Source: an uncultured Bdellovibrionales bacterium (GTDB lineage Bacteria > Bdellovibrionota_C > UBA2361 > SZUA-149 > CAZDIO01). Taken from it: DNA of 64,000 nt. The notes beneath the pieces are model-generated. The model saw nothing but the letters and a program-made list of their open reading frames with translations. It was not told the DNA's origin and did not search any database. The translations under genes and the position numbers were made by a program. Shown one piece after another: positions 6,676-62,754 of the stretch (the stretch's first letter is position 1; each line of letters starts with the position of its first letter). The stretch spans positions 3,088-67,087 of the forward strand of contig CAZDIO010000125.1 in the NCBI GenBank assembly GCA_964505555.1. Reading direction: 5' to 3'.

Positions 6676-7370
6676 ATATCAAACAGAAAATTCTGATTAT
6701 CGATGATGAAGTTCAGATTCGTCGTTTTCTTCGCGCAAGTCTCTCCTCCGGAGATATTGAAATCCTTGAAGCCTCCACGGGAAGAGAGGGGATTTCAATG
6801 ACCGCAACCCATAATCCCGATGTGGTGCTTCTTGATCTCGGGCTTCCTGACATATCGGGAATAGAGGTATTAAAAAATATCCGGGAATGGTCAGAGGTCC
6901 CGCTCATTATTCTTTCTGCAAGAGGAGAAGAAAGCGATAAGATACTGGCGCTAGATTCTGGAGCCGATGACTACCTTACAAAACCATTTTCAGTAGGAGA
7001 ACTTCAAGCTCGAATTCGAGTGGTGTTAAGAAATAAACAAAATCCTCTCGAAGAAGCACCGACAATATTTGAAAAGGATTTTTTAAAAATTGACTTCGGT
7101 GCGCGTCGAGTATTTGTAAATAATCAAGATGTGCACCTCACTCCGACTGAATATAAACTTCTTTCGGTACTTGTCCATCACTGTGGGCGGGTGCTCACCC
7201 ATAAACAACTGCTTAATGAGGTCTGGGGTGCAGCTTACGCCAATCAGACCCATTACCTCCGAGTTTTTATGGGGCAGCTTCGACAAAAAATTGAGCGAGA
7301 TCCTGCCCAACCCCAGTTTTTCATAACGGAACCAGGAGTTGGGTATCGATTTCAGTGCGAATTCGATTAG
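6672..7370 (+). CDS. kdpE: OmpR-family response regulator KdpE
   Basis: Receiver domain (ILIIDDE…VVLLDLGLPD) plus a winged-helix C-terminus (GVGYRF). Overlaps the kdpD stop by 4 nt. Confidence 0.85.
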   Translation: MNIKQKILIIDDEVQIRRFLRASLSSGDIEILEASTGREGISMTATHNPDVVLLDLGLPDISGIEVLKNIREWSEVPLIILSARGEESDKILALDSGADDYLTKPFSVGELQARIRVVLRNKQNPLEEAPTIFEKDFLKIDFGARRVFVNNQDVHLTPTEYKLLSVLVHHCGRVLTHKQLLNEVWGAAYANQTHYLRVFMGQLRQKIERDPAQPQFFITEPGVGYRFQCEFD

Positions 7371-10702: not shown

Positions 10703-11836
10703 CTATTTCTCCTTTCGCTTATAAAATGGAACTTTTATTACCTGAATTGCTAACTTTCGTCCGCGCACCTCCGCAAGAAGCTCCGTGCCGAGCGTTGCAT
10801 ATTCTGTTTCTACAAAAGCAAGACCGATCGCTCGATTGACCGTGGGGGGTTTTGTCCCACTGGTAGCCCAACCGATCTCCTGACCTTTTGGAGAGAAGAT
10901 CTTCATCTCCCCCCGCACGATCCCCGGTTCACAGACCTCAAAGCCGATAAGCTTTATCTTTGAACCTTGCTCTTTCTCTTTAAGGAGGGATTCTCGTCCG
11001 ATAAAATCTTCTTTATTGAATTTTACCACCCATCCCAACCCAGAAGAGAGGACACTAATAATGTCACTAAGTTCATGTCCGTGGAGCGGAAAGCCTGCCT
11101 CAAGTCGGAGCGTATCTCGCGCCCCAAGCCCTGCTGGCTTGACCCCAAACTGGGCTCCTTCCGTGATCAGCATCTTCCAAAAACTTGGGGTATCTGCCGC
11201 TGCACAAAAGAGCTCAAATCCATCTTCTCCCGTATATCCCGTTCGAGCAACGATGCCCTTTTTCGGGGTGGTGGTGTTTGTAGAAACCGACTCAACCTGA
11301 AATGAAGGGAAGGATTTTAGATCAAATGCTTGCGAGGGGAAGATTCGTTCCAAAAGATTTTGAGCCTTTGGTCCCTGAATTGCAATCTGACCATAGGAGG
11401 GTGAGGCATCTTCGATAATTGTTTTTCGTCGGCTGTGGGTGAGAAGCCAGTGGTAATCTTTTTCGATATTTGAGGCGTTTACACAGAGTAGATACTCTTC
11501 ATCTTTTAGTTGATAGACAATGATATCATCAACAGCTCCACCTTGAGGATTAAGAAGGAGTGAATACTGCGCTCGCCCCGGAGTTAATTTCGATACATCG
11601 TTACTGGTGAGGTATTGTAAAAACGGAAGGGCGTTTGGACCACGAATAAAGATCTCTCCCATGTGGGAAACATCAAACAGCCCAACCTGGTTTCGTACCG
11701 TGAGGTGTTCATCGACAAGCCCACTATACTGAACGGGCATACTCCACCCACCAAACTCGGTAAAGCGCGCACCAAGCTCCTGATGGCAAGAATAAAGAGG
11801 GGTTCGTTTTAGTGCGGTTCCAGTTGGGGTATTCAT
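10703..11836 (-). CDS. gcvT: Aminomethyltransferase (glycine cleavage T protein)
   Basis: 377 aa with GcvT family similarity (LFDVSHMGEIFIRG). Forms a gcvT-gcvH-gcvP operon order. Confidence 0.9.
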   Translation of the reverse strand: MNTPTGTALKRTPLYSCHQELGARFTEFGGWSMPVQYSGLVDEHLTVRNQVGLFDVSHMGEIFIRGPNALPFLQYLTSNDVSKLTPGRAQYSLLLNPQGGAVDDIIVYQLKDEEYLLCVNASNIEKDYHWLLTHSRRKTIIEDASPSYGQIAIQGPKAQNLLERIFPSQAFDLKSFPSFQVESVSTNTTTPKKGIVARTGYTGEDGFELFCAAADTPSFWKMLITEGAQFGVKPAGLGARDTLRLEAGFPLHGHELSDIISVLSSGLGWVVKFNKEDFIGRESLLKEKEQGSKIKLIGFEVCEPGIVRGEMKIFSPKGQEIGWATSGTKPPTVNRAIGLAFVETEYATLGTELLAEVRGRKLAIQVIKVPFYKRKEK

Positions 11837-19397: not shown

Positions 19398-19471
19398 TGG
19401 CTCGCCCACAAGGACTCGAACCTCAATCTTCAGAGTCAGAATCTGACATGCTACCATTGCACCATGGGCGA
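19398..19471 (-). tRNA. tRNA-Gln (anticodon CUG), CCA encoded
   Basis: Manual fold of the reverse complement TCGCCCATGGTGCAATGGTAGCATGTCAGATTCTGACTCTGAAGATTGAGGTTCGAGTCCTTGTGGGCGAGCCA. The anticodon stem is TCAGA/TCTGA and the loop TTCTGAC gives CUG. U1-A72 and G73 match Gln identity. Confidence 0.8.
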
Positions 19472-19646
19472 ACAAAATTGGTCATTAAAGCTTTTTCTTT
19501 AAGATAGTTCTAGCACACAATTCTTGAAAGCGTTATCGACGCTACACACAAGCACTAACTTCCCACCACCCTAAAAATAAATAAAATAGATAGGAAATGC
19601 TTTCTTTCTTAGCTACTTTCACATATTATCGCTTCCTTCCTTTTCC

Positions 19647-19718
19647 GGCCCCTTCGTCTAGCGGTTAGGACGGCGGCCTCTCACGCCGCAAGCACGGGTT
19701 CGATTCCCGTAGGGGTCA
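19647..19718 (+). tRNA. tRNA-Glu (anticodon CUC), CCA not encoded
   Basis: Manual cloverleaf of GGCCCCTTCGTCTAGCGGTTAGGACGGCGGCCTCTCACGCCGCAAGCACGGGTTCGATTCCCGTAGGGGTCA. The anticodon stem is GCGGC/GCCGC and the loop CTCTCAC gives CUC. The T-loop is TTCGATT. Confidence 0.8.
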
Positions 19719-19969
19719 CAAGCTCTCTCCAACAAGTGTCAGAGAGTTTTTAAAAAACTTATAAATCCTCACCTCGTTGATTGCGATCGCATCGAAAATC
19801 ACTCCTCAAAGTGCCAAAAAAGTAGGCATGGAGCCACAAAATCTTGAAAATTACGATCTAGCATCCTCTGAGTTGACAATGTTTGTTACATGACCAGATC
19901 TGCGTACACACGCAGAAACCATCGGAGATACCGACACTAACGTTCCTCCGAAAATCGCGAAACTCTTTT

Positions 19970-20890
19970 TTATGTTCTACAGGTCCAGGCGGGAGGATGA
20001 AAGGTCCAAACCGGAAAGTCAACGTTAAGAACACCACTAAGAAATTGCTTGGATATTTTTTTGTATTCAACACAGATTGCTTGATACCATTTCTTAAATT
20101 GATATCGACGTTTTGGACATGCCGTATGACAAAGAGGTCGAGGTGCTTTCTTTGTCATAAAAGGACGAAAGCCTGGTTTTATCCGGGAAAGCGCCAAGAT
20201 ACCAAAAACATTTTTCCGTTCTAATTGTCTTTTTTTCGCATACTCGCGCTCAAAATTCTCCAGTGCCTTCTTTTGTATTGAAAGCCTTTTTTCTTTCGAT
20301 AAGTGCTTCCAGATTGGAAGAGGTGCTAGTTGAAGAGCATAATTTCTCTGATAGTTTTTAATATCAACGTGCTTATATCTTCCTTTATTAGCTTTGTCTT
20401 TTCTAAAATTTGCCCAATCTGTCCAAGTATAAGTGGGAACGGTTCCCGTAATAGCTTGATGATACCCTGAAAGACCTTTATATTCGTCGCCCTTAGACAC
20501 AAGATATGAAGAAACTGCATTCGCATTTACATAACAATACATGTGCACCAATTTATCTTCAAACACCACTTCACAGTCGTATCTTCGATGCCAGAGCTTG
20601 CCATCTTCCCAACCATAGATTCTCTTTGTCGCCGCAGCTAATGCGGACTTTAAGTCTTTCATGAACTTAGGTATCCGTTTTTTTCTTCCTTGAAGGAGGA
20701 GATGAAAATGATTCCCAAGCACACTCACTCCATAAAGCTTAATTTCATATCGAGCAGCAGCTCTTGCAATGATACTGCCAAAGATATTTTCAAACTCCTT
20801 TGAAGGAAGAAACCAGATGCGACTTTCCTTTGTTCTGGAACAAATATGATAGATCTTTTTTGAACTTAATACGCGTAATGGCCAGCCCAT
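19970..20890 (-). mobile_element. Y1 HUH tyrosine transposase-like protein (IS200/IS605 TnpA or RAYT family) with a ~170-aa C-terminal extension
   Basis: The N-terminal ~135 aa align with IS200 TnpA: YHI…, the HUH motif GNHFHLLL, and a catalytic-Tyr helix (KLWHRRYDCEVV…YCYVNANAV, equivalent to the YIE.NPV motif). Visibly AT-rich relative to flanks. Adjacent to two tRNA genes. No tnpB partner. Confidence 0.7.
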
Positions 20891-21080
20891 ATATTTGATT
20901 CCTTTCTAAGTATTAGTGTTTTGAGAGAAGAGAGCTTCGAATGAGCGCTCTTTAAGGCTTCTATCTTTGTTCTCGTTTCTTTTTTAAGTTCGTCTCAATC
21001 TTTAAGGATCTGTGGGATGGTTAAGTATTTATTTCAATGCTATTAAGCACTTAACCTTATAATACGAATGTCTTTGACAC

Positions 21081-21500
21081 TTGAGGGAAGGGAAGTTGGC
21101 AAGGATTTTCTTTTTGCCTTTGGGATTTTTTAGCTTGGCGTTGGGCGTCGTGGGGATCTTTCTTCCGCTTCTGCCGACAACGCCCTTTCTCCTCCTTTCT
21201 GCCTTTTGCTTTGCACGGAGCTCCTCAAAAATCCACTCCTGGATGCTCTCTCACAAAACCCTCGGTGCCATCATTCATGATTGGCAACTTCATGGCGCTA
21301 TCGCACTAAAAGTAAAAATTCTTAGCTCCGCACTCCTCCTCTCAACAATGAGCTACTCAATACTCTGGAAGGAAAACTCAAAACCACTAACAGCTCTCCT
21401 TCTCTCGATCATGTCCGGGGCCCTCCTCTTCATTTGGTCAAGACCCTCTCGGCAACAAACAGAAATTGAACCGTCTTCAAACAAGCCAAACAAGCTATAA
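21081..21500 (+). CDS. DUF454 (YbaN-like) inner-membrane protein
   Basis: 139 aa. The motif GIFLPLLPTTPFLLLSAFCFARSS is the DUF454 signature. Confidence 0.65.
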   Translation: MREGKLARIFFLPLGFFSLALGVVGIFLPLLPTTPFLLLSAFCFARSSSKIHSWMLSHKTLGAIIHDWQLHGAIALKVKILSSALLLSTMSYSILWKENSKPLTALLLSIMSGALLFIWSRPSRQQTEIEPSSNKPNKL

Positions 21501-21563
21501 GGACATGAGAAGAGCAGTGGCGCAGCTCCCAACCTCCTCACCACGCCACCACTTATTTTTCAT

Positions 21564-32913: not shown

Positions 32914-34014
32914 TTACGCGGCAAACAAATTAAGCTGGAGTGGAGTTCCTGTCGTTACCTGCTTTGGGAGAAGTAACTTCTGTGGAGCAAGAATTTTTAG
33001 CGCGTAATAGAGATTTCGATAACTATGTGGTCGTAGCATTCGCAGTTGCTTATCAACAACAAGCTTCTGAGCCACCGGAAGATGCTTCAACTTCAGCTCA
33101 TCTTCCACTCTTCCCGCCGAAAGAGCGCCAAATGTAATATAATCACTATGTGCATCAAGAAGCTCAGCAAACTCCCAAGCATCGCGGGTAATCTCTCCAT
33201 AGGGGAGAATTGGTGATACGACGAAATTTACTTTAATCCCCTGTTGGCGGAGTCCATCCGCTGCAATCATCCGCTCAGTAATGCTTGGTTGCCCTGGGGT
33301 ATAACGATTCACAACACTATCGAGTCGAGTTTCTACATGCAACGCTACTACTGCTTTTGTTCCCAAAGCACGTAAAGTTGGAAGCCCCGCTATCACGAGT
33401 GGTGAACGGGTTTGAATCACCAACAAACCAGGTCGGTACCGCTCAAGGAGAGCAAGGCAATTCATTGTTACATTAAACTTTTTTGGAAATGAAAAGAACG
33501 GATCCGTAGTTATTCCAAAATAGATCACACTCGATTCCAGTTTTCCTTGTTCATGGAGTTGAGAAAGTCTTTTCTCAAGCGCCTCTTCATAATGCTCCTT
33601 ATAAAGGAAGTACCTTCCGGTCGGGAGGAGATAATCTCTCGTATCTCGAAACCGTAAGTGAAACTGGCTTGGTTGAAATCCGTGAAGCGCGTTTTCCTCA
33701 CCTTCAGATTGAGTTGTTACTTGGGAAGATCCACTTCCCAAATGAGAGGAAAACGTCACACCATTTGGATACGCGTTTAAGGTGTAAATGTGTGTCGCGT
33801 TATCATGCCACGTCCGCACGAGTTCTTCCGCCCCAGGGTTAAAATAAAAATCATCTCCCAAGCTATGGGTATCTCTCACTTGAGGAATTTTCGTTCCTGA
33901 ACTACCCCCCCCGTCAATGGGGGTATGTAATTCTATCAGGGCAGATTTTGCGTTATCTTCTCGAATCTTTAGTTGTTTCATATAGCCTCGTAAAACGCTA
34001 ACGTTTACAACCAC
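32914..34014 (-). CDS. Unknown-function protein, paralog of 34930..35796. Possibly an SPL/COG1533-like fold without radical-SAM cysteines.
   Basis: 366 aa. Shares conserved blocks with the 288-aa paralog (FG…DPF, IQ(T/S)RSPL, NRYTP…ER…A). It has a single Cys and no CxxxCxxC. Confidence 0.45.
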   Translation of the reverse strand: MVVNVSVLRGYMKQLKIREDNAKSALIELHTPIDGGGSSGTKIPQVRDTHSLGDDFYFNPGAEELVRTWHDNATHIYTLNAYPNGVTFSSHLGSGSSQVTTQSEGEENALHGFQPSQFHLRFRDTRDYLLPTGRYFLYKEHYEEALEKRLSQLHEQGKLESSVIYFGITTDPFFSFPKKFNVTMNCLALLERYRPGLLVIQTRSPLVIAGLPTLRALGTKAVVALHVETRLDSVVNRYTPGQPSITERMIAADGLRQQGIKVNFVVSPILPYGEITRDAWEFAELLDAHSDYITFGALSAGRVEDELKLKHLPVAQKLVVDKQLRMLRPHSYRNLYYALKILAPQKLLLPKQVTTGTPLQLNLFAA

Positions 34015-34269
34015 ATCCCCTATTTGTCCCCATTATACAGCTTCACCAATACTAGTTCAACCCACTTAAAGCAATTTGTGTATGATCTAGATTAGTTTCA
34101 ACTTTGGATTTCATTAAAGATTATTAATAACCTGCCGATATACATGTGATTGACAAGCTATTGCCTCATCAAAACGCTGAAAGATTTTATTTTAGCGACA
34201 GGCACATAGGTTTTTTGGAGGTTTGATGCTCCGATTGGCCAATATATAAAAGATGAAAAGGTAGGCACC

Positions 34270-34452
34270 ATGAAAGAAGCACTTCGTAAACTAAAAGAAA
34301 AAAAGACAGAGCAAAATGAACAGGGGTCCATTGAGCTTATTGTTATCGGCCTTCTTGCAGCGTTGATTATTGTTCTTGCAATTCCACTCTTAAAAGATAC
34401 TGGTTCAAAAACAGCATCTGCACTCTCGTCTCTAAACGGACAGATGACATAA
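34270..34452 (+). CDS. Small pilin-like membrane peptide (Flp/type IV pilin-like), paralog 1
   Basis: 60 aa. A charged leader MKEALRKLKEKKTEQNEQG is followed by SIELIVIGLLAALIIVLAIPLL, a single TM, and a short polar tail. It resembles a prepilin leader plus hydrophobic N-terminal helix. Confidence 0.45.
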   Translation: MKEALRKLKEKKTEQNEQGSIELIVIGLLAALIIVLAIPLLKDTGSKTASALSSLNGQMT

Positions 34453-34591
34453 GATTGTGTTGCTTAGGAACTAGGTTGAGAGAACCTCCTCTTCAGAGCG
34501 CTGTATTATATACTTAATATTGACTCTTATAGTGTAGACACTCAACCTTTTTCCAAACTTGCATAGTGCTCTTTGGCTGGAACAACTTACA

Positions 34592-34768
34592 ATGCGCGTT
34601 AAAGCGCTGGGGCAGAAAATGAAAAAAGAAACAAATGAACGTGGTTCGATAGAAATTATCGTTATCGGACTGCTTGCAGCGTTGGTGATCGTCCTTGCTA
34701 TTCCGTTATTAAAAGATACCGGATCAAAAACGGCGAGCTCACTTTCCTCGATGAACGCCATATACTAA
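34592..34768 (+). CDS. Small pilin-like membrane peptide, paralog 2
   Basis: MRVKALGQKMKKETNERGSIEIIVIGLLAALVIVLAIPLLKDTGSKTASSLSSMNAIY is near-identical to paralog 1 in the core. The ORF track extends it to a TTG at 34559, but the ATG at 34592 aligns with paralog 1. Confidence 0.45.
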   Translation: MRVKALGQKMKKETNERGSIEIIVIGLLAALVIVLAIPLLKDTGSKTASSLSSMNAIY

Positions 34769-34929
34769 TTCTAGCATGTAAAACATGCTTCTTCTTGAGG
34801 GCTTGGTCACAAAATATCGCTCTTATGCGATAGAAAAACCGTAGTTTAAGTTTCCTGAACCAACTTCTTTCCTCTTGAATCTAATCGAGAGGATGAATGA
34901 AATAGGGTTAACAACAACTACGGTTTTTT

Positions 34930-35796
34930 ATGGCCACACTCCACACTGCTCGTACTGGAAAATTTTCCCTTTTAATTGCCGACATCATCGGTGGAGATCT
35001 GCATTTACAAAAAAAACTGCTCGCTCTTGATACTCAGCAACTACCCCTTCTCCTCCCCCAACTTCCCCTATTTTTACCTGATACTCGTTGTTCCGGTTCA
35101 ATTCAAAAATCGAGAGGTACAACGTTTCGCCGTTCGCTAGGAAAACTGACCGATGAACTTTCAAGACACCATTCAGCAAATACGATCATTCTCTTTGGAG
35201 CAATGAGCGATCCTTTCTCACCTTTTGAGAATGCTTTCGATCTCGCTCTGAAAGTCACCGAGTCATTTGCACGCTTTCTTCCAAAAAAACTTTTTATCCA
35301 ATCACGATCTCCTTTGCTCTCACTTCTTTTTCCAATCTTGAAATCTCTTGGAAAAAGGGTCTGCATAACTATGGCCCTTGAGACAAACAATCAAGATATC
35401 GCGGACCGCTACACACCGCACTTACCACTGGTTGCTGAAAGAATTGAAACAGCAAAATTGCTCCGTTCTTTAGAGGTTGATATGCTTCTTCAAGTTGCAC
35501 CACTCTTGCCCTTAAGCGACGCAGCAAACGCTGCATCACAATTTGCAACTATCTTACGAGAAACAAGCACCTCAATGTATGTAAAGCCTCTTGCCTGGTT
35601 TTTAAGCCGAGTACTAAGCACAAATTGCTACAAAACTCTCTCGCTTCAAACTGCCCGCATGAATGCAAACGATCCTTACACCAAACACGCCTCCACTCTT
35701 CTTATCGAAGAACTCAAAGCCACTGCTTCAAACCAGTTACTGTATCGCTCCCTTCCTCCTCAACTGCCTCTACGAACAGAGCCGGTAAGAATCTAA
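34930..35796 (+). CDS. Unknown-function protein, paralog of 32914..34014
   Basis: 288 aa. Blocks ILFGAMSDPF, LFIQSRSPLL and DRYTPHLPLVAERIETA align with the 366-aa paralog. Confidence 0.45.
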   Translation: MATLHTARTGKFSLLIADIIGGDLHLQKKLLALDTQQLPLLLPQLPLFLPDTRCSGSIQKSRGTTFRRSLGKLTDELSRHHSANTIILFGAMSDPFSPFENAFDLALKVTESFARFLPKKLFIQSRSPLLSLLFPILKSLGKRVCITMALETNNQDIADRYTPHLPLVAERIETAKLLRSLEVDMLLQVAPLLPLSDAANAASQFATILRETSTSMYVKPLAWFLSRVLSTNCYKTLSLQTARMNANDPYTKHASTLLIEELKATASNQLLYRSLPPQLPLRTEPVRI

Positions 35797-45845: not shown

Positions 45846-45934
45846 AATGAACACAGGGTTTCACAGAGATCCACAGAGTCAGAATATTCGATTTTATTCT
45901 TTACTCTGTGAAACTCCGTGAACTCTGTGTTCAA
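45846..45934. repeat. Palindromic dispersed repeat, copy C (REP/MITE-like, CACAGAG family)
   Basis: gaacacagggtttcacagag…ctctgtgaaactccgtgaactctgtgttc: imperfect long inverted arms around a loop gaatattcgattttattc. Intergenic between pstC and pstS. Confidence 0.7.
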
Positions 45935-48871: not shown

Positions 48872-48975
48872 GAGGGTATCTGCGCAAATGAATGTTAGCG
48901 GCGTGTTTGGTCTCTGTTAAAAGTTCATAACACACCCCAGGCCACGGCCATAAGTTAAGGATCTGAAGAAAGATT

Positions 48976-49050
48976 TATAGGACCACAGAGTCACAGAGAA
49001 GATCAATAAAATCTTTTTTCTCTGTGCCTCTGCGTCTCTGTGGTTCTATA
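48976..49050. repeat. Palindromic dispersed repeat, copy A (short variant of copy B)
   Basis: tataggaccacagagtcacagagaagatcaataaaatcttttttctctgtgcctctgcgtctctgtggttctata. Terminal IR TATAGnACCACAGAG/CTCTGTGGTTCTATA. It shares the central agagaagatcaataaaatc with copy B. Confidence 0.75.
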
Positions 49051-49084
49051 AAAAATCCTTCCCTTAATGCCCGTAACCCCAGGG

Positions 49085-51054: not shown

Positions 51055-51150
51055 TAACGCAGAGCACACGGAGCACACAGAGAGGAGAATTTATCCCTTT
51101 TCCCCTCTGTGTGCTCCGTGTGCTCTGCGTCTTCCTCTGTGTTAAAAACC
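51055..51150. repeat. Palindromic dispersed repeat, copy D
   Basis: Perfect 25-bp IR gcagagcacacggagcacacagagg / cctctgtgtgctccgtgtgctctgc around loop agaatttatcccttttcc. An outer IR ttaacGCAGAG/CTCTGTGttaa matches the termini of copy C. Confidence 0.75.
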
Positions 51151-62565: not shown

Positions 62566-62617
62566 TTCTCAACTAAAACTGTGAAAACTTCTCACGGTCA
62601 TTACGTTAAGGATTTTT

Positions 62618-62716
62618 TATAGAACCACAGAGGCGCAGAGACATAGAGACATAGAGACATAGAGAAGATCAATAAAATCCCTTTCCTCTGTGTCTCTGCG
62701 CCTCTGTGGTTCTATA
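62618..62716. repeat. Palindromic dispersed repeat, copy B (long variant with 3x CATAGAGA microsatellite)
   Basis: tatagaaccacagaggcgcagagaca (tagagaca x3) gaagatcaataaaatc cctttcc tctgtgtctctgcgcctctgtggttctata. The 26-bp terminal IR is perfect. Confidence 0.8.
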
Positions 62717-62754
62717 AATCTTCTTTCAGATCCGTCACTTCATGGCCGTGAGAA

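Follow-up and report, generated by a model that had tools for sequence, protein, structure and literature searches.

A TIRtron-like cassette with a RAYT-like Y1 nuclease and a family-specific C-terminal extension in an uncultured Bdellovibrionales bacterium

RAYTs, the tyrosine transposases associated with repetitive extragenic palindromes (REPs), are defined by REPs that directly flank the gene (PMC5581495, PMC6006769). RAYT-like genes with inverted repeats instead of REPs have been described as TIRYTs, the genes of TIRtrons; they are low in copy number and widely distributed (Di Nocera et al. 2013, PMC3733652; PMC6006769, PMC5581495), and correspond largely to subclass 2.1 of the TnpAY1 superfamily (Quentin et al. 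2018, PMC6006769) and to Bertels group 1. Within this superfamily, RAYT-like Y1 enzymes that lack REPs are both the largest and the least understood group. Here we describe a Y1 (HUH) gene for a 306-aa protein in a 64,000-nucleotide stretch of contig CAZDIO010000125.1 from an uncultured Bdellovibrionales bacterium (the window). The locus resembles the TIRYTs in that a single RAYT-like Y1 gene is flanked by inverted repeats at roughly fixed distances, with no REPs, and with moderate confidence we regard it as a TIRtron-type cassette, i.e. one gene for a RAYT-like Y1 single-stranded DNA (ssDNA) nuclease-ligase enclosed by its own recognition repeats. Within this reading it is established that the catalytic residues are intact, that the two-part architecture is conserved, that the bracketing repeats recur and that repeat copies are dispersed in two relatives.

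The Y1 core proposed in a sequence-only reading of the window is readily recognized. Pfam Y1_Tnp (PF01797) matches residues 12-122 of the protein with 40.7 bits against a cut-off of 23. Direct reading of the sequence places the HUH motif at N60-H61-F62-H63 (nt 20702-20713) and the tyrosine at Tyr120 within YCYVNANAV (nt 20531-20533). Among 67 aligned relatives Y120 does not vary at all, and N60, H61 and H63 are nearly invariant. The family consensus around the tyrosine is YxxxNPV; the window protein has Y120, N124 and A125, Ala thus replacing Pro, with Asn124 being the class-2 'YxxxN' residue. YxxxN[P/A] is the class-2 (TnpAREP-like) signature of Quentin et al. 2018, as opposed to YxxxQ in IS200. 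Of the NCBIfam equivalogs, the RAYT model (REP_Tyr_transpos) gives 42.5 bits and the IS200 model (NF033573) 19.3 bits, below their cut-offs of 80 and 55, respectively. The profile search thus confirms the Y1 assignment at the level of Pfam, but leaves the protein short of the RAYT equivalog.

Structural comparisons point in the same direction. With a family profile, the top match in the PDB is E. coli TnpAREP (4ER8; E=1.8e-10, positions 1-149), whereas IS200-type TnpAs reach only ~1e-3. The AlphaFold2 model of the full-length protein has a predicted local distance difference test (pLDDT) score of 95.8 and a predicted template modelling score (pTM) of 0.92. According to Foldseek, its first ~130-156 residues superpose on ISDra2 and IS608 TnpA and on 4ER8, the latter with a TMt of 0.72 and a root-mean-square deviation of 3.5 Å over 156 columns; 2XM3, 2VJV and others are matched with E-values of 1e-6 to 1e-4, the best belonging to ISDra2 TnpA. 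Judged by its motifs and profile matches, the Y1 core is RAYT/TIRYT-like rather than IS200-like, in keeping with the lineage favoured by the sequence-only reading. Searches with this protein in other collections returned little: BFVD gave no significant match to the full-length model, PADLOC no match, PHROGs a weak generic transposase only, and metagenome contigs a single weak N-terminal match.

The long C-terminal extension noticed earlier is real. An exhaustive phmmer search recovered 2836 cluster representatives at E<=1e-3; the number falls to 675 at <=1e-10 and to 30 at <=1e-30. Nearly all of the best 150 matches are 290-340 aa long and align over their whole length, which makes the doubled size characteristic of the family rather than a peculiarity of this locus. 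The C-terminal ~150 aa are conserved among hundreds of relatives of ~300 aa, with the motifs LPLP, PRPLCH and FPxxxFxPP. In the model the tail consists of two short strands and two long helices. It is without Pfam matches in 29 family members and without PDB matches by sequence or by Foldseek (best E 2.6). When modelled alone its pTM drops to 0.51, compared to 0.92 for the full-length protein, and we infer that the tail packs onto the catalytic core and is not a free-standing domain. Relatives carry the IMG label 'REP element-mobilizing transposase RayT', and the few named NCBI records are metagenome-assembled genomes (MAGs) of Bdellovibrionota, 'Deltaproteobacteria' and Pseudomonadota.

In a large subgroup of the family (P0176-P0182, alignment A4), KRPLVLTL takes the place of the PRPLCH found in the window protein and its closer relatives. 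Not all members thus have the Cys-His pair, and a metal site at this position common to the whole family appears unlikely.

The gene is bracketed by a 13-nt inverted repeat, CAAGTGTCA[G/A]AGA, at the positions given in Table 1. The core of the window version is GTGTCAGAGA. The pattern RGTGTCARAGA has only 2 exact occurrences in the 64 kb, which lie at the two ends of the gene on opposite strands. Inverted repeats also bracket homologues at 6 of 8 other loci, and at 4 of these they exceed every shuffle. The statement in the sequence-only reading that the gene lacks flanking insertion sequence ends has to be revised accordingly. On the coding strand the core reads TCAGAGA upstream and TCTCTGA downstream; it is found in this form, and with constant orientation, in L006, L007, L131, L132 and at the downstream end of the window cassette, and is a small near-palindrome of the form TCTC-A-GAGA.

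The closest homologue, P0002 at locus L002 (genome GCA_964405665.1, 59% amino acid identity), provides the most direct comparison. Here the repeat AAGAGGTGTCAGACAATTATTTA and its complement extend over 23 nt (87% complementary, score 15.5 vs a shuffle maximum of 14.5). They lie 108 nt before and 218 nt after the gene, and the upstream core GGTGTCAGA matches that of the window. For the L002-derived core GTGTCARA to occur once in each of the 400-nt flanks of the window gene and in the correct orientation, the estimated chance probability is ~1e-4. The downstream ends of the two cassettes align, with TTTTTAAAAACTCTCTGACACTTGTT against TTTTTAAATAATTCTTTGACACCTATT. The similarity between the window and L002 runs between the repeats, while the flanking genes are unrelated, the L002 copy lying between xseB and a 456-aa open reading frame (ORF) whose C-terminus is DnaJ-like by eye. 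The frame of the L002 gene (10001-10921) is lost: the called ORF covers 183 aa and the C-terminal motifs can be read in other frames. This homologue is probably a pseudogene.

Among more distant family members (24-33% identity), repeats of the same kind recur. L004 carries GGTATCAGCTT... 187 nt upstream and 215 nt downstream, together with an inner palindromic pair. In L006, a Bdellovibrionota MAG, the 23-nt repeat TAACCCCCTCAGAGACCATGAGT is located 89 nt upstream and 165 nt downstream (score 15.5 vs a shuffle maximum of 13), and L007/L008 share a 31-nt repeat, ACAAATTCTCAGAGAACTTGTTAGACGAAAT, 136 nt upstream and 149 nt downstream (score 26 vs 13). L131 has a perfect 20-mer, AGTTCTCAGAGAACGTGTTT, and L132 has CTAGCTCTCAG[G/A]GA[A/G]CGTGTT in two upstream and one downstream copies of 22-24 nt (scores 19-20 vs 14.5).

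Copies are also found away from the gene. L007 has an extra palindromic copy of the repeat core, CCCCAACAAGTTCTCTGAGAATTTGTTGGGG, at 6759-6789, ~680 nt beyond the cassette. In L132 there are three extra copies ~2 kb away. One is at 6973-6998; the other two, at 7082-7130, make up an inverted dimer, GTTCTCAGAGAGCGTGTTATTGAAAATAACACGCTCTCTGAGAGC, whose 19-nt arms enclose a 3-nt loop, which is the geometry of a REPIN. A REPIN-like pattern has been reported for some families of terminal inverted repeats (Di Nocera et al. 2013, PMC3733652). As far as can be judged from the arrangement of these copies, their dispersal near two homologues indicates activity on DNA in trans. In addition, genome GCA_020852715.1 harbours two paralogues, 63% identical, at different loci.

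Two further observations concern L002. Its downstream end (11151-11180) shows a 15-bp tandem duplication, TGACACCTATTCTTC, that overlaps the stop codon of xseB. At a distance of 7.8 kb, L002:18975-19010 may hold a solo copy of the upstream end, GGTGTCAGACATTTATATAATGGCCTAAGT; this match is borderline (blastn-short E 0.34, L002:18977).

We then compared the family with the published Y1 systems. It shares with the TIRYTs a low copy number and divergent paralogues, and some genomes have small repeat families of monomers or dimers. A hidden Markov model (HMM) of the family recognizes published TIRYTs with 66-87 bits over positions 1 to ~150 only (gbm 2474, 87.2; hch 1378, 81.0; rba 2408, 78.6; aba 2776, 78.0). 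The E. coli RAYT obtains 43.9 bits and one Pseudomonas RAYT 74.9 bits, hence the margin for TIRYTs is small. Published TIRYTs end in a DnaA_C/HTH-like (helix-turn-helix) C-terminus of ~70-110 aa, whereas the present family has an unrelated extension of ~150 aa; no such HTH tail (Bac_DnaA_C, HTH_23, HTH_28) was detected by Pfam in 29 members, and the HMM alignments stop at ~150. The N-terminus reads MxRPLR...TxRT here and MARxPR...HVxQRGN in published TIRYTs, and among the 37 sequences of the published TIRYT/RAYT alignment none shares the tail or the N-terminal signature of the family. The repeat core is TCAGAGA here and GGGGWSAS in many, though not all, published TIRYTs. The fit to GGGGWSAS is 7/8 for L002 (GGTGTCAG), 6/8 for the window (AGTGTCAG) and 6/8 for L004 (GGTATCAG); other family members have TTCTCAGAGAAC, which does not fit.

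With RAYT/TnpAREP proteins such as E. coli YafM (4ER8; subclasses 2.2/2.5, i.e. Bertels groups 2/3) the window protein shares the core with HUH and YxxxNP-type motifs, the fold, the single-copy state and the absence of tnpB. However, it is twice as long, and no GTAG-footed REP or REPIN flanks the gene. Hairpins of the REP/REPIN type with a GT[AG]G foot, which in RAYT genomes both flank the gene and are abundant throughout, were not found beside it, and within the 64 kb the flanking repeat occurs only at the two ends. The IS200/IS605 TnpAs (IS608, ISDra2) have in common with it the HUH/Y1 fold and presumably the single-strand cut-and-join chemistry. These subclass 1.1 proteins differ in having YxxxQ and only the core of ~150 aa, as opposed to YxxxN (YVNAN) and 306 aa here. 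Their elements have asymmetric subterminal hairpins, often tnpB, and several near-identical copies, none of which is seen in the 64 kb. Subclass 2.3 of Chromatiales and Alteromonadales (median 325 aa) is similar in length, lacks REPs and has a long subclass-specific distal tail. It is set apart by two insertions in the core (172 aa) and by the motifs NHYH, WE and YVDLNP, while the modelled core of the window protein appears uninterrupted and of ordinary size. Thus, the family would be neither RAYT proper nor IS200/IS605 TnpA by these features, but TIRYT-like with a different tail and an apparently different repeat motif. Compared by the motifs and lengths in Table 1 of Quentin et al. 2018, it may represent a new subclass or an unsampled part of 2.1.1.

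In the proposed mechanism the cassette would have been acquired horizontally into a variable interval between gltX and the gene of a peptidyl-prolyl isomerase (PPIase). The enzyme would bind its repeat, either as a small ssDNA hairpin or as a duplex palindrome, and the HUH metal site together with Tyr120 would nick and rejoin one strand at or beside each repeat. By analogy with IS608 and ISDra2 TnpA and with E. coli TnpAREP, this would proceed through a 5'-phosphotyrosine intermediate. 'Peel and paste' chemistry is known for IS200/IS605 TnpA and has been proposed for RAYTs, and the cassette or repeat-only derivatives may be moved in this manner. The tail probably supplies repeat recognition or dimerisation, replacing the DnaA-like HTH of the published TIRYTs.

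Several signs of acquisition and turnover are consistent with a TIRtron-type cassette. With a GC content of 0.386 it is poorer in GC than any other 1351-nt stretch of the window (mean 0.446, standard deviation 0.018), which substantiates the AT-richness noted before. The L002 copy is decayed in an unrelated context and paralogues occupy different loci. L009, the closest GltX relative with a long contig, keeps the order minD-minC-gltX...tRNA-Gln-tRNA-Glu-PPIase-sigma-gmk; the stretch from gltX to the tRNAs encodes a 691-aa protein, Imm53 and an antitoxin there, and contains no Y1 or DUF454 gene. As the content of this interval differs, the gltX-PPIase interval is an accessory-gene hot spot.

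A number of results weigh against this reading. Taken alone, the 13-mer of the window does not stand out from shuffled flanks (score 10.5 vs a null 95th percentile of 11.0); the weight of the repeat comes from its conservation across loci. Two of the nine loci (L003 and L005) are without a clear repeat. Single-strand folding of the ends is no better than that of shuffles (z -1.0 to -2.4), and pattern search and blastn-short found neither a second cassette copy nor a solo repeat in the 64 kb. No target-site duplication was found, nor an empty site in a close relative; as GltX identity to the nearest relatives is only 65-69%, there is no close genome to compare. The family is absent from 72,556 plasmid records, where tblastn gave only N-terminal matches in Skermanella, and from 50,697 phage records (tblastn, no match), and no transfer vehicle has thus been identified. 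Biochemical data on any TIRYT were not found in the literature examined.

An alternative is a domesticated host gene. The Y1 protein would then move nothing and serve some ssDNA transaction, and the repeats would be relics or regulatory sites, e.g. an autoregulatory operator or a 5'/3' pairing in the transcript. The single Y1 copy in the window, the one or two divergent copies per genome in relatives and the lack of near-identical copies, of plasmid or phage carriage and of a target duplication are all compatible with domestication, and RAYTs in general have been argued to behave like housekeeping genes (Bertels et al. 2017, PMC5581495). Moreover, conservation at 24-33% identity over hundreds of clusters covers the entire protein with its tail, which argues for purifying selection on the protein. 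However, the composition is foreign, the gene is missing from the syntenic interval of L009 and the 59%-identical copy is decayed in another genomic context, and the repeat copies dispersed near two homologues, including the REPIN-like dimer, point to activity on DNA in trans. Altogether we consider domestication rather unlikely. A degraded canonical IS200/IS605 element that has lost tnpB and the subterminal hairpins would explain the Pfam Y1_Tnp match and why the best Foldseek E-values are those of ISDra2 TnpA. We see next to no chance for this origin, since the score with NF033573 (19.3 bits vs a cut-off of 55) and the motif YxxxN[A/P] instead of YxxxQ (Table 1 of PMC6006769) are both at odds with it, the 306-aa architecture is family-wide and no fusion artefact, and the ends are inverted repeats, not asymmetric hairpins, with no tnpB remnant.

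The sequence-only reading had proposed the gene as a RAYT that mobilises the CACAGAG-heptad palindromes of its genome. RAYT-like enzymes act on dispersed hairpins, and the four palindromes it described are present: CACAGAG occurs 27 times in the window vs 6.7 expected, and a relaxed hairpin detector finds four in the window and 0 in shuffles. Furthermore, CAGAG(A) is common to the family core TCAGAGA and the heptad CACAGAG(A). An overlap of 5-6 nt carries little weight, however, and we judge the link to be very unlikely. No palindrome lies within 24 kb of the gene, which has its own, different repeats, and the absence of REP copies directly beside it had been recorded already. The dispersed copies in relatives match the gene's own repeat and not the heptad arrays, and heptad hairpins are missing from 71 kb at seven homologue loci, where ~4 would be expected at window density, as well as from 22 kb of two relatives of the organism. 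Hairpins of this type occur in many phyla, with no Y1-family gene and no ORF with HUH and Y motifs in 836 kb around them. A broader proposal is that CACAGAG hairpins across phyla are produced and spread in trans by an enzyme of the Y1 family or of a close relative, the sharing of CAGAG(A) then not being due to chance. In our view this is highly improbable; if true, it would amount to a REP/RAYT-like partnership with a DNA element that is conserved in sequence across phyla.

The TIRtron-type cassette thus provides a compact, testable example of a RAYT-like enzyme without REPs, with a high-confidence 306-aa model and a candidate 13-nt site on each side, and relatives in which a site of the same type has spread, both singly and in the form of a REPIN-like dimer. 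The conserved tail, which replaces the HTH of the published TIRYTs, could show how such enzymes choose DNA. This choice matters for the spread of short repeats in bacterial genomes and for HUH enzymes as sequence-specific ssDNA tools. The system is clean and testable but holds no surprise for specialists, and for genome annotation it is ordinary: a single acquired cassette, selfish or semi-domesticated, at a hot spot of accessory genes. The heptad hairpins, found across phyla, may merit more attention than the Y1 gene itself.

Table 1. Positions in the 64-kb window of the Y1 cassette, its parts and other features.
Feature	Position	Strand	Description	Basis
Whole cassette	19733..21083	(-)	1351 bp, one gene	inverted repeat to inverted repeat
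Y1/HUH nuclease gene	19970..20890	(-)	306 aa, intact, ATG start	ORF, Pfam, NCBIfam, phmmer, AlphaFold2
N-terminal catalytic core	20441..20890	(-)	residues 1 to ~150	Foldseek, family profile, family HMM
C-terminal extension	19973..20440	(-)	residues ~151-306; family-specific; motifs LPLP, PRPLCH, FPxxxFxPP	
Upstream terminal inverted repeat	21071..21083		+ strand TCTTTGACACTTG, coding strand CAAGTGTCAAAGA; 193 nt before ATG	
Downstream terminal inverted repeat	19733..19745		+ strand CAAGTGTCAGAGA, coding strand TCTCTGACACTTG; 225 nt after stop	
tRNA-Gln(ctg)	19398-19471	(-)		
tRNA-Glu(ctc)	19647-19719	(+)		
CACAGAG palindromes	45852-45929, 48984-49042, 51058-51141, 62626-62708		25-42 kb from Y1 gene, none flanking	

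The Y1 gene stands alone, as had been supposed. The family HMM finds no second Y1 gene in the window, and the neighbouring genes, which include neither tnpB nor a tnpB remnant, are minC, gltX, a DUF454 gene, the genes for a cyclophilin PPIase and an extracytoplasmic function (ECF) sigma factor, and gmk. A scan for promoters and terminators gave nothing convincing for the Y1 gene. The cassette begins 13 nt beyond tRNA-Glu. The adjacency to tRNA-Glu and tRNA-Gln is real, but such adjacency does not characterize the family: five other homologue loci were scanned, and no tRNA was present in the flanks fetched for any of them.

The 13 nt after tRNA-Glu (AAGCTCTCTCCAA; region 19721-19760) pair with AGAGAG of the inverted repeat of the cassette, followed by TTTTT. 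The end of the cassette therefore completes a terminator-like hairpin for tRNA-Glu (111 nt, z -2.4 for the fold). Comparison of L009:7456-11127 with positions 19398-21563 of the window shows that in L009 both tRNAs are on the minus strand, with 13 nt separating tRNA-Glu and the PPIase gene. In the window the two tRNAs have opposite orientations, tRNA-Glu being the inverted one, and the Y1 cassette and the DUF454 gene lie between tRNA-Glu and the PPIase gene. This arrangement suggests a local inversion or rearrangement.

All four CACAGAG palindromes are located within the window's last 18 kb, and most of them directly follow the 3' ends of genes. Copies 2 and 4 (48952-49074 and 62594-62740) share ~125-145 nt including flanks, with 85-88% identity and in opposite orientation, and look like one family of elements resembling miniature inverted-repeat transposable elements, with a central heptad hairpin. 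Scanning one genome per GTDB species with the pattern CACAGAGN{1,3}CRCAGAGN{15,45}CTCTGTG yielded at least 120 stretches (L011-L130). The hairpins are not confined to the lineage of the window: the matches listed represent at least nine bacterial phyla, complete genomes of isolates among them, and come from Acidobacteriota, Planctomycetota, Chloroflexota, Bacteroidota, Nitrospirota, Verrucomicrobiota, Gemmatimonadota, Pseudomonadota and Myxococcota, the last including the complete genome of Sorangium cellulosum So0157-2, and from one archaeal MAG. On both strands 64 of the 120 matches listed are hit and are thus true palindromes, with two to four heptad units per arm. The typical design is ...CAC-CACAGAG-n-CACAGAG...loop...CTCTGTG-n-CTCTGTG-GTG..., with arms of two to four tandem heptads, and in the hairpins inspected variant units are mirrored between the arms (e.g. 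CGCAGAG with CTCTGCG).

The surroundings searched for Y1 genes comprise up to ~8 kb per genome around the 120 listed hairpins; among the neighbouring genes no family is enriched beyond ordinary housekeeping genes. Rfam has no family for these hairpins and returns only sub-threshold matches to generic hairpins (miRNA precursors). No description was found in the literature searched, and the motif is absent from the supplements of PMC6006769. One candidate considered is that they might be the 'atypical' class-3 TnpAY1 repeats (CnGA foot; Acidobacteria, Planctomycetes, Proteobacteria). As seen in ~8 kb per genome, the heptad hairpins are a widespread element whose explanation does not obviously involve the Y1 gene.

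Elsewhere in the window, a 141-nt direct repeat with 73% identity is present at 34298-34438 and 34617-34757, the copies being 319 nt apart. The region around it is among the lowest-GC stretches of the window (~0.397 at 33951-35400).

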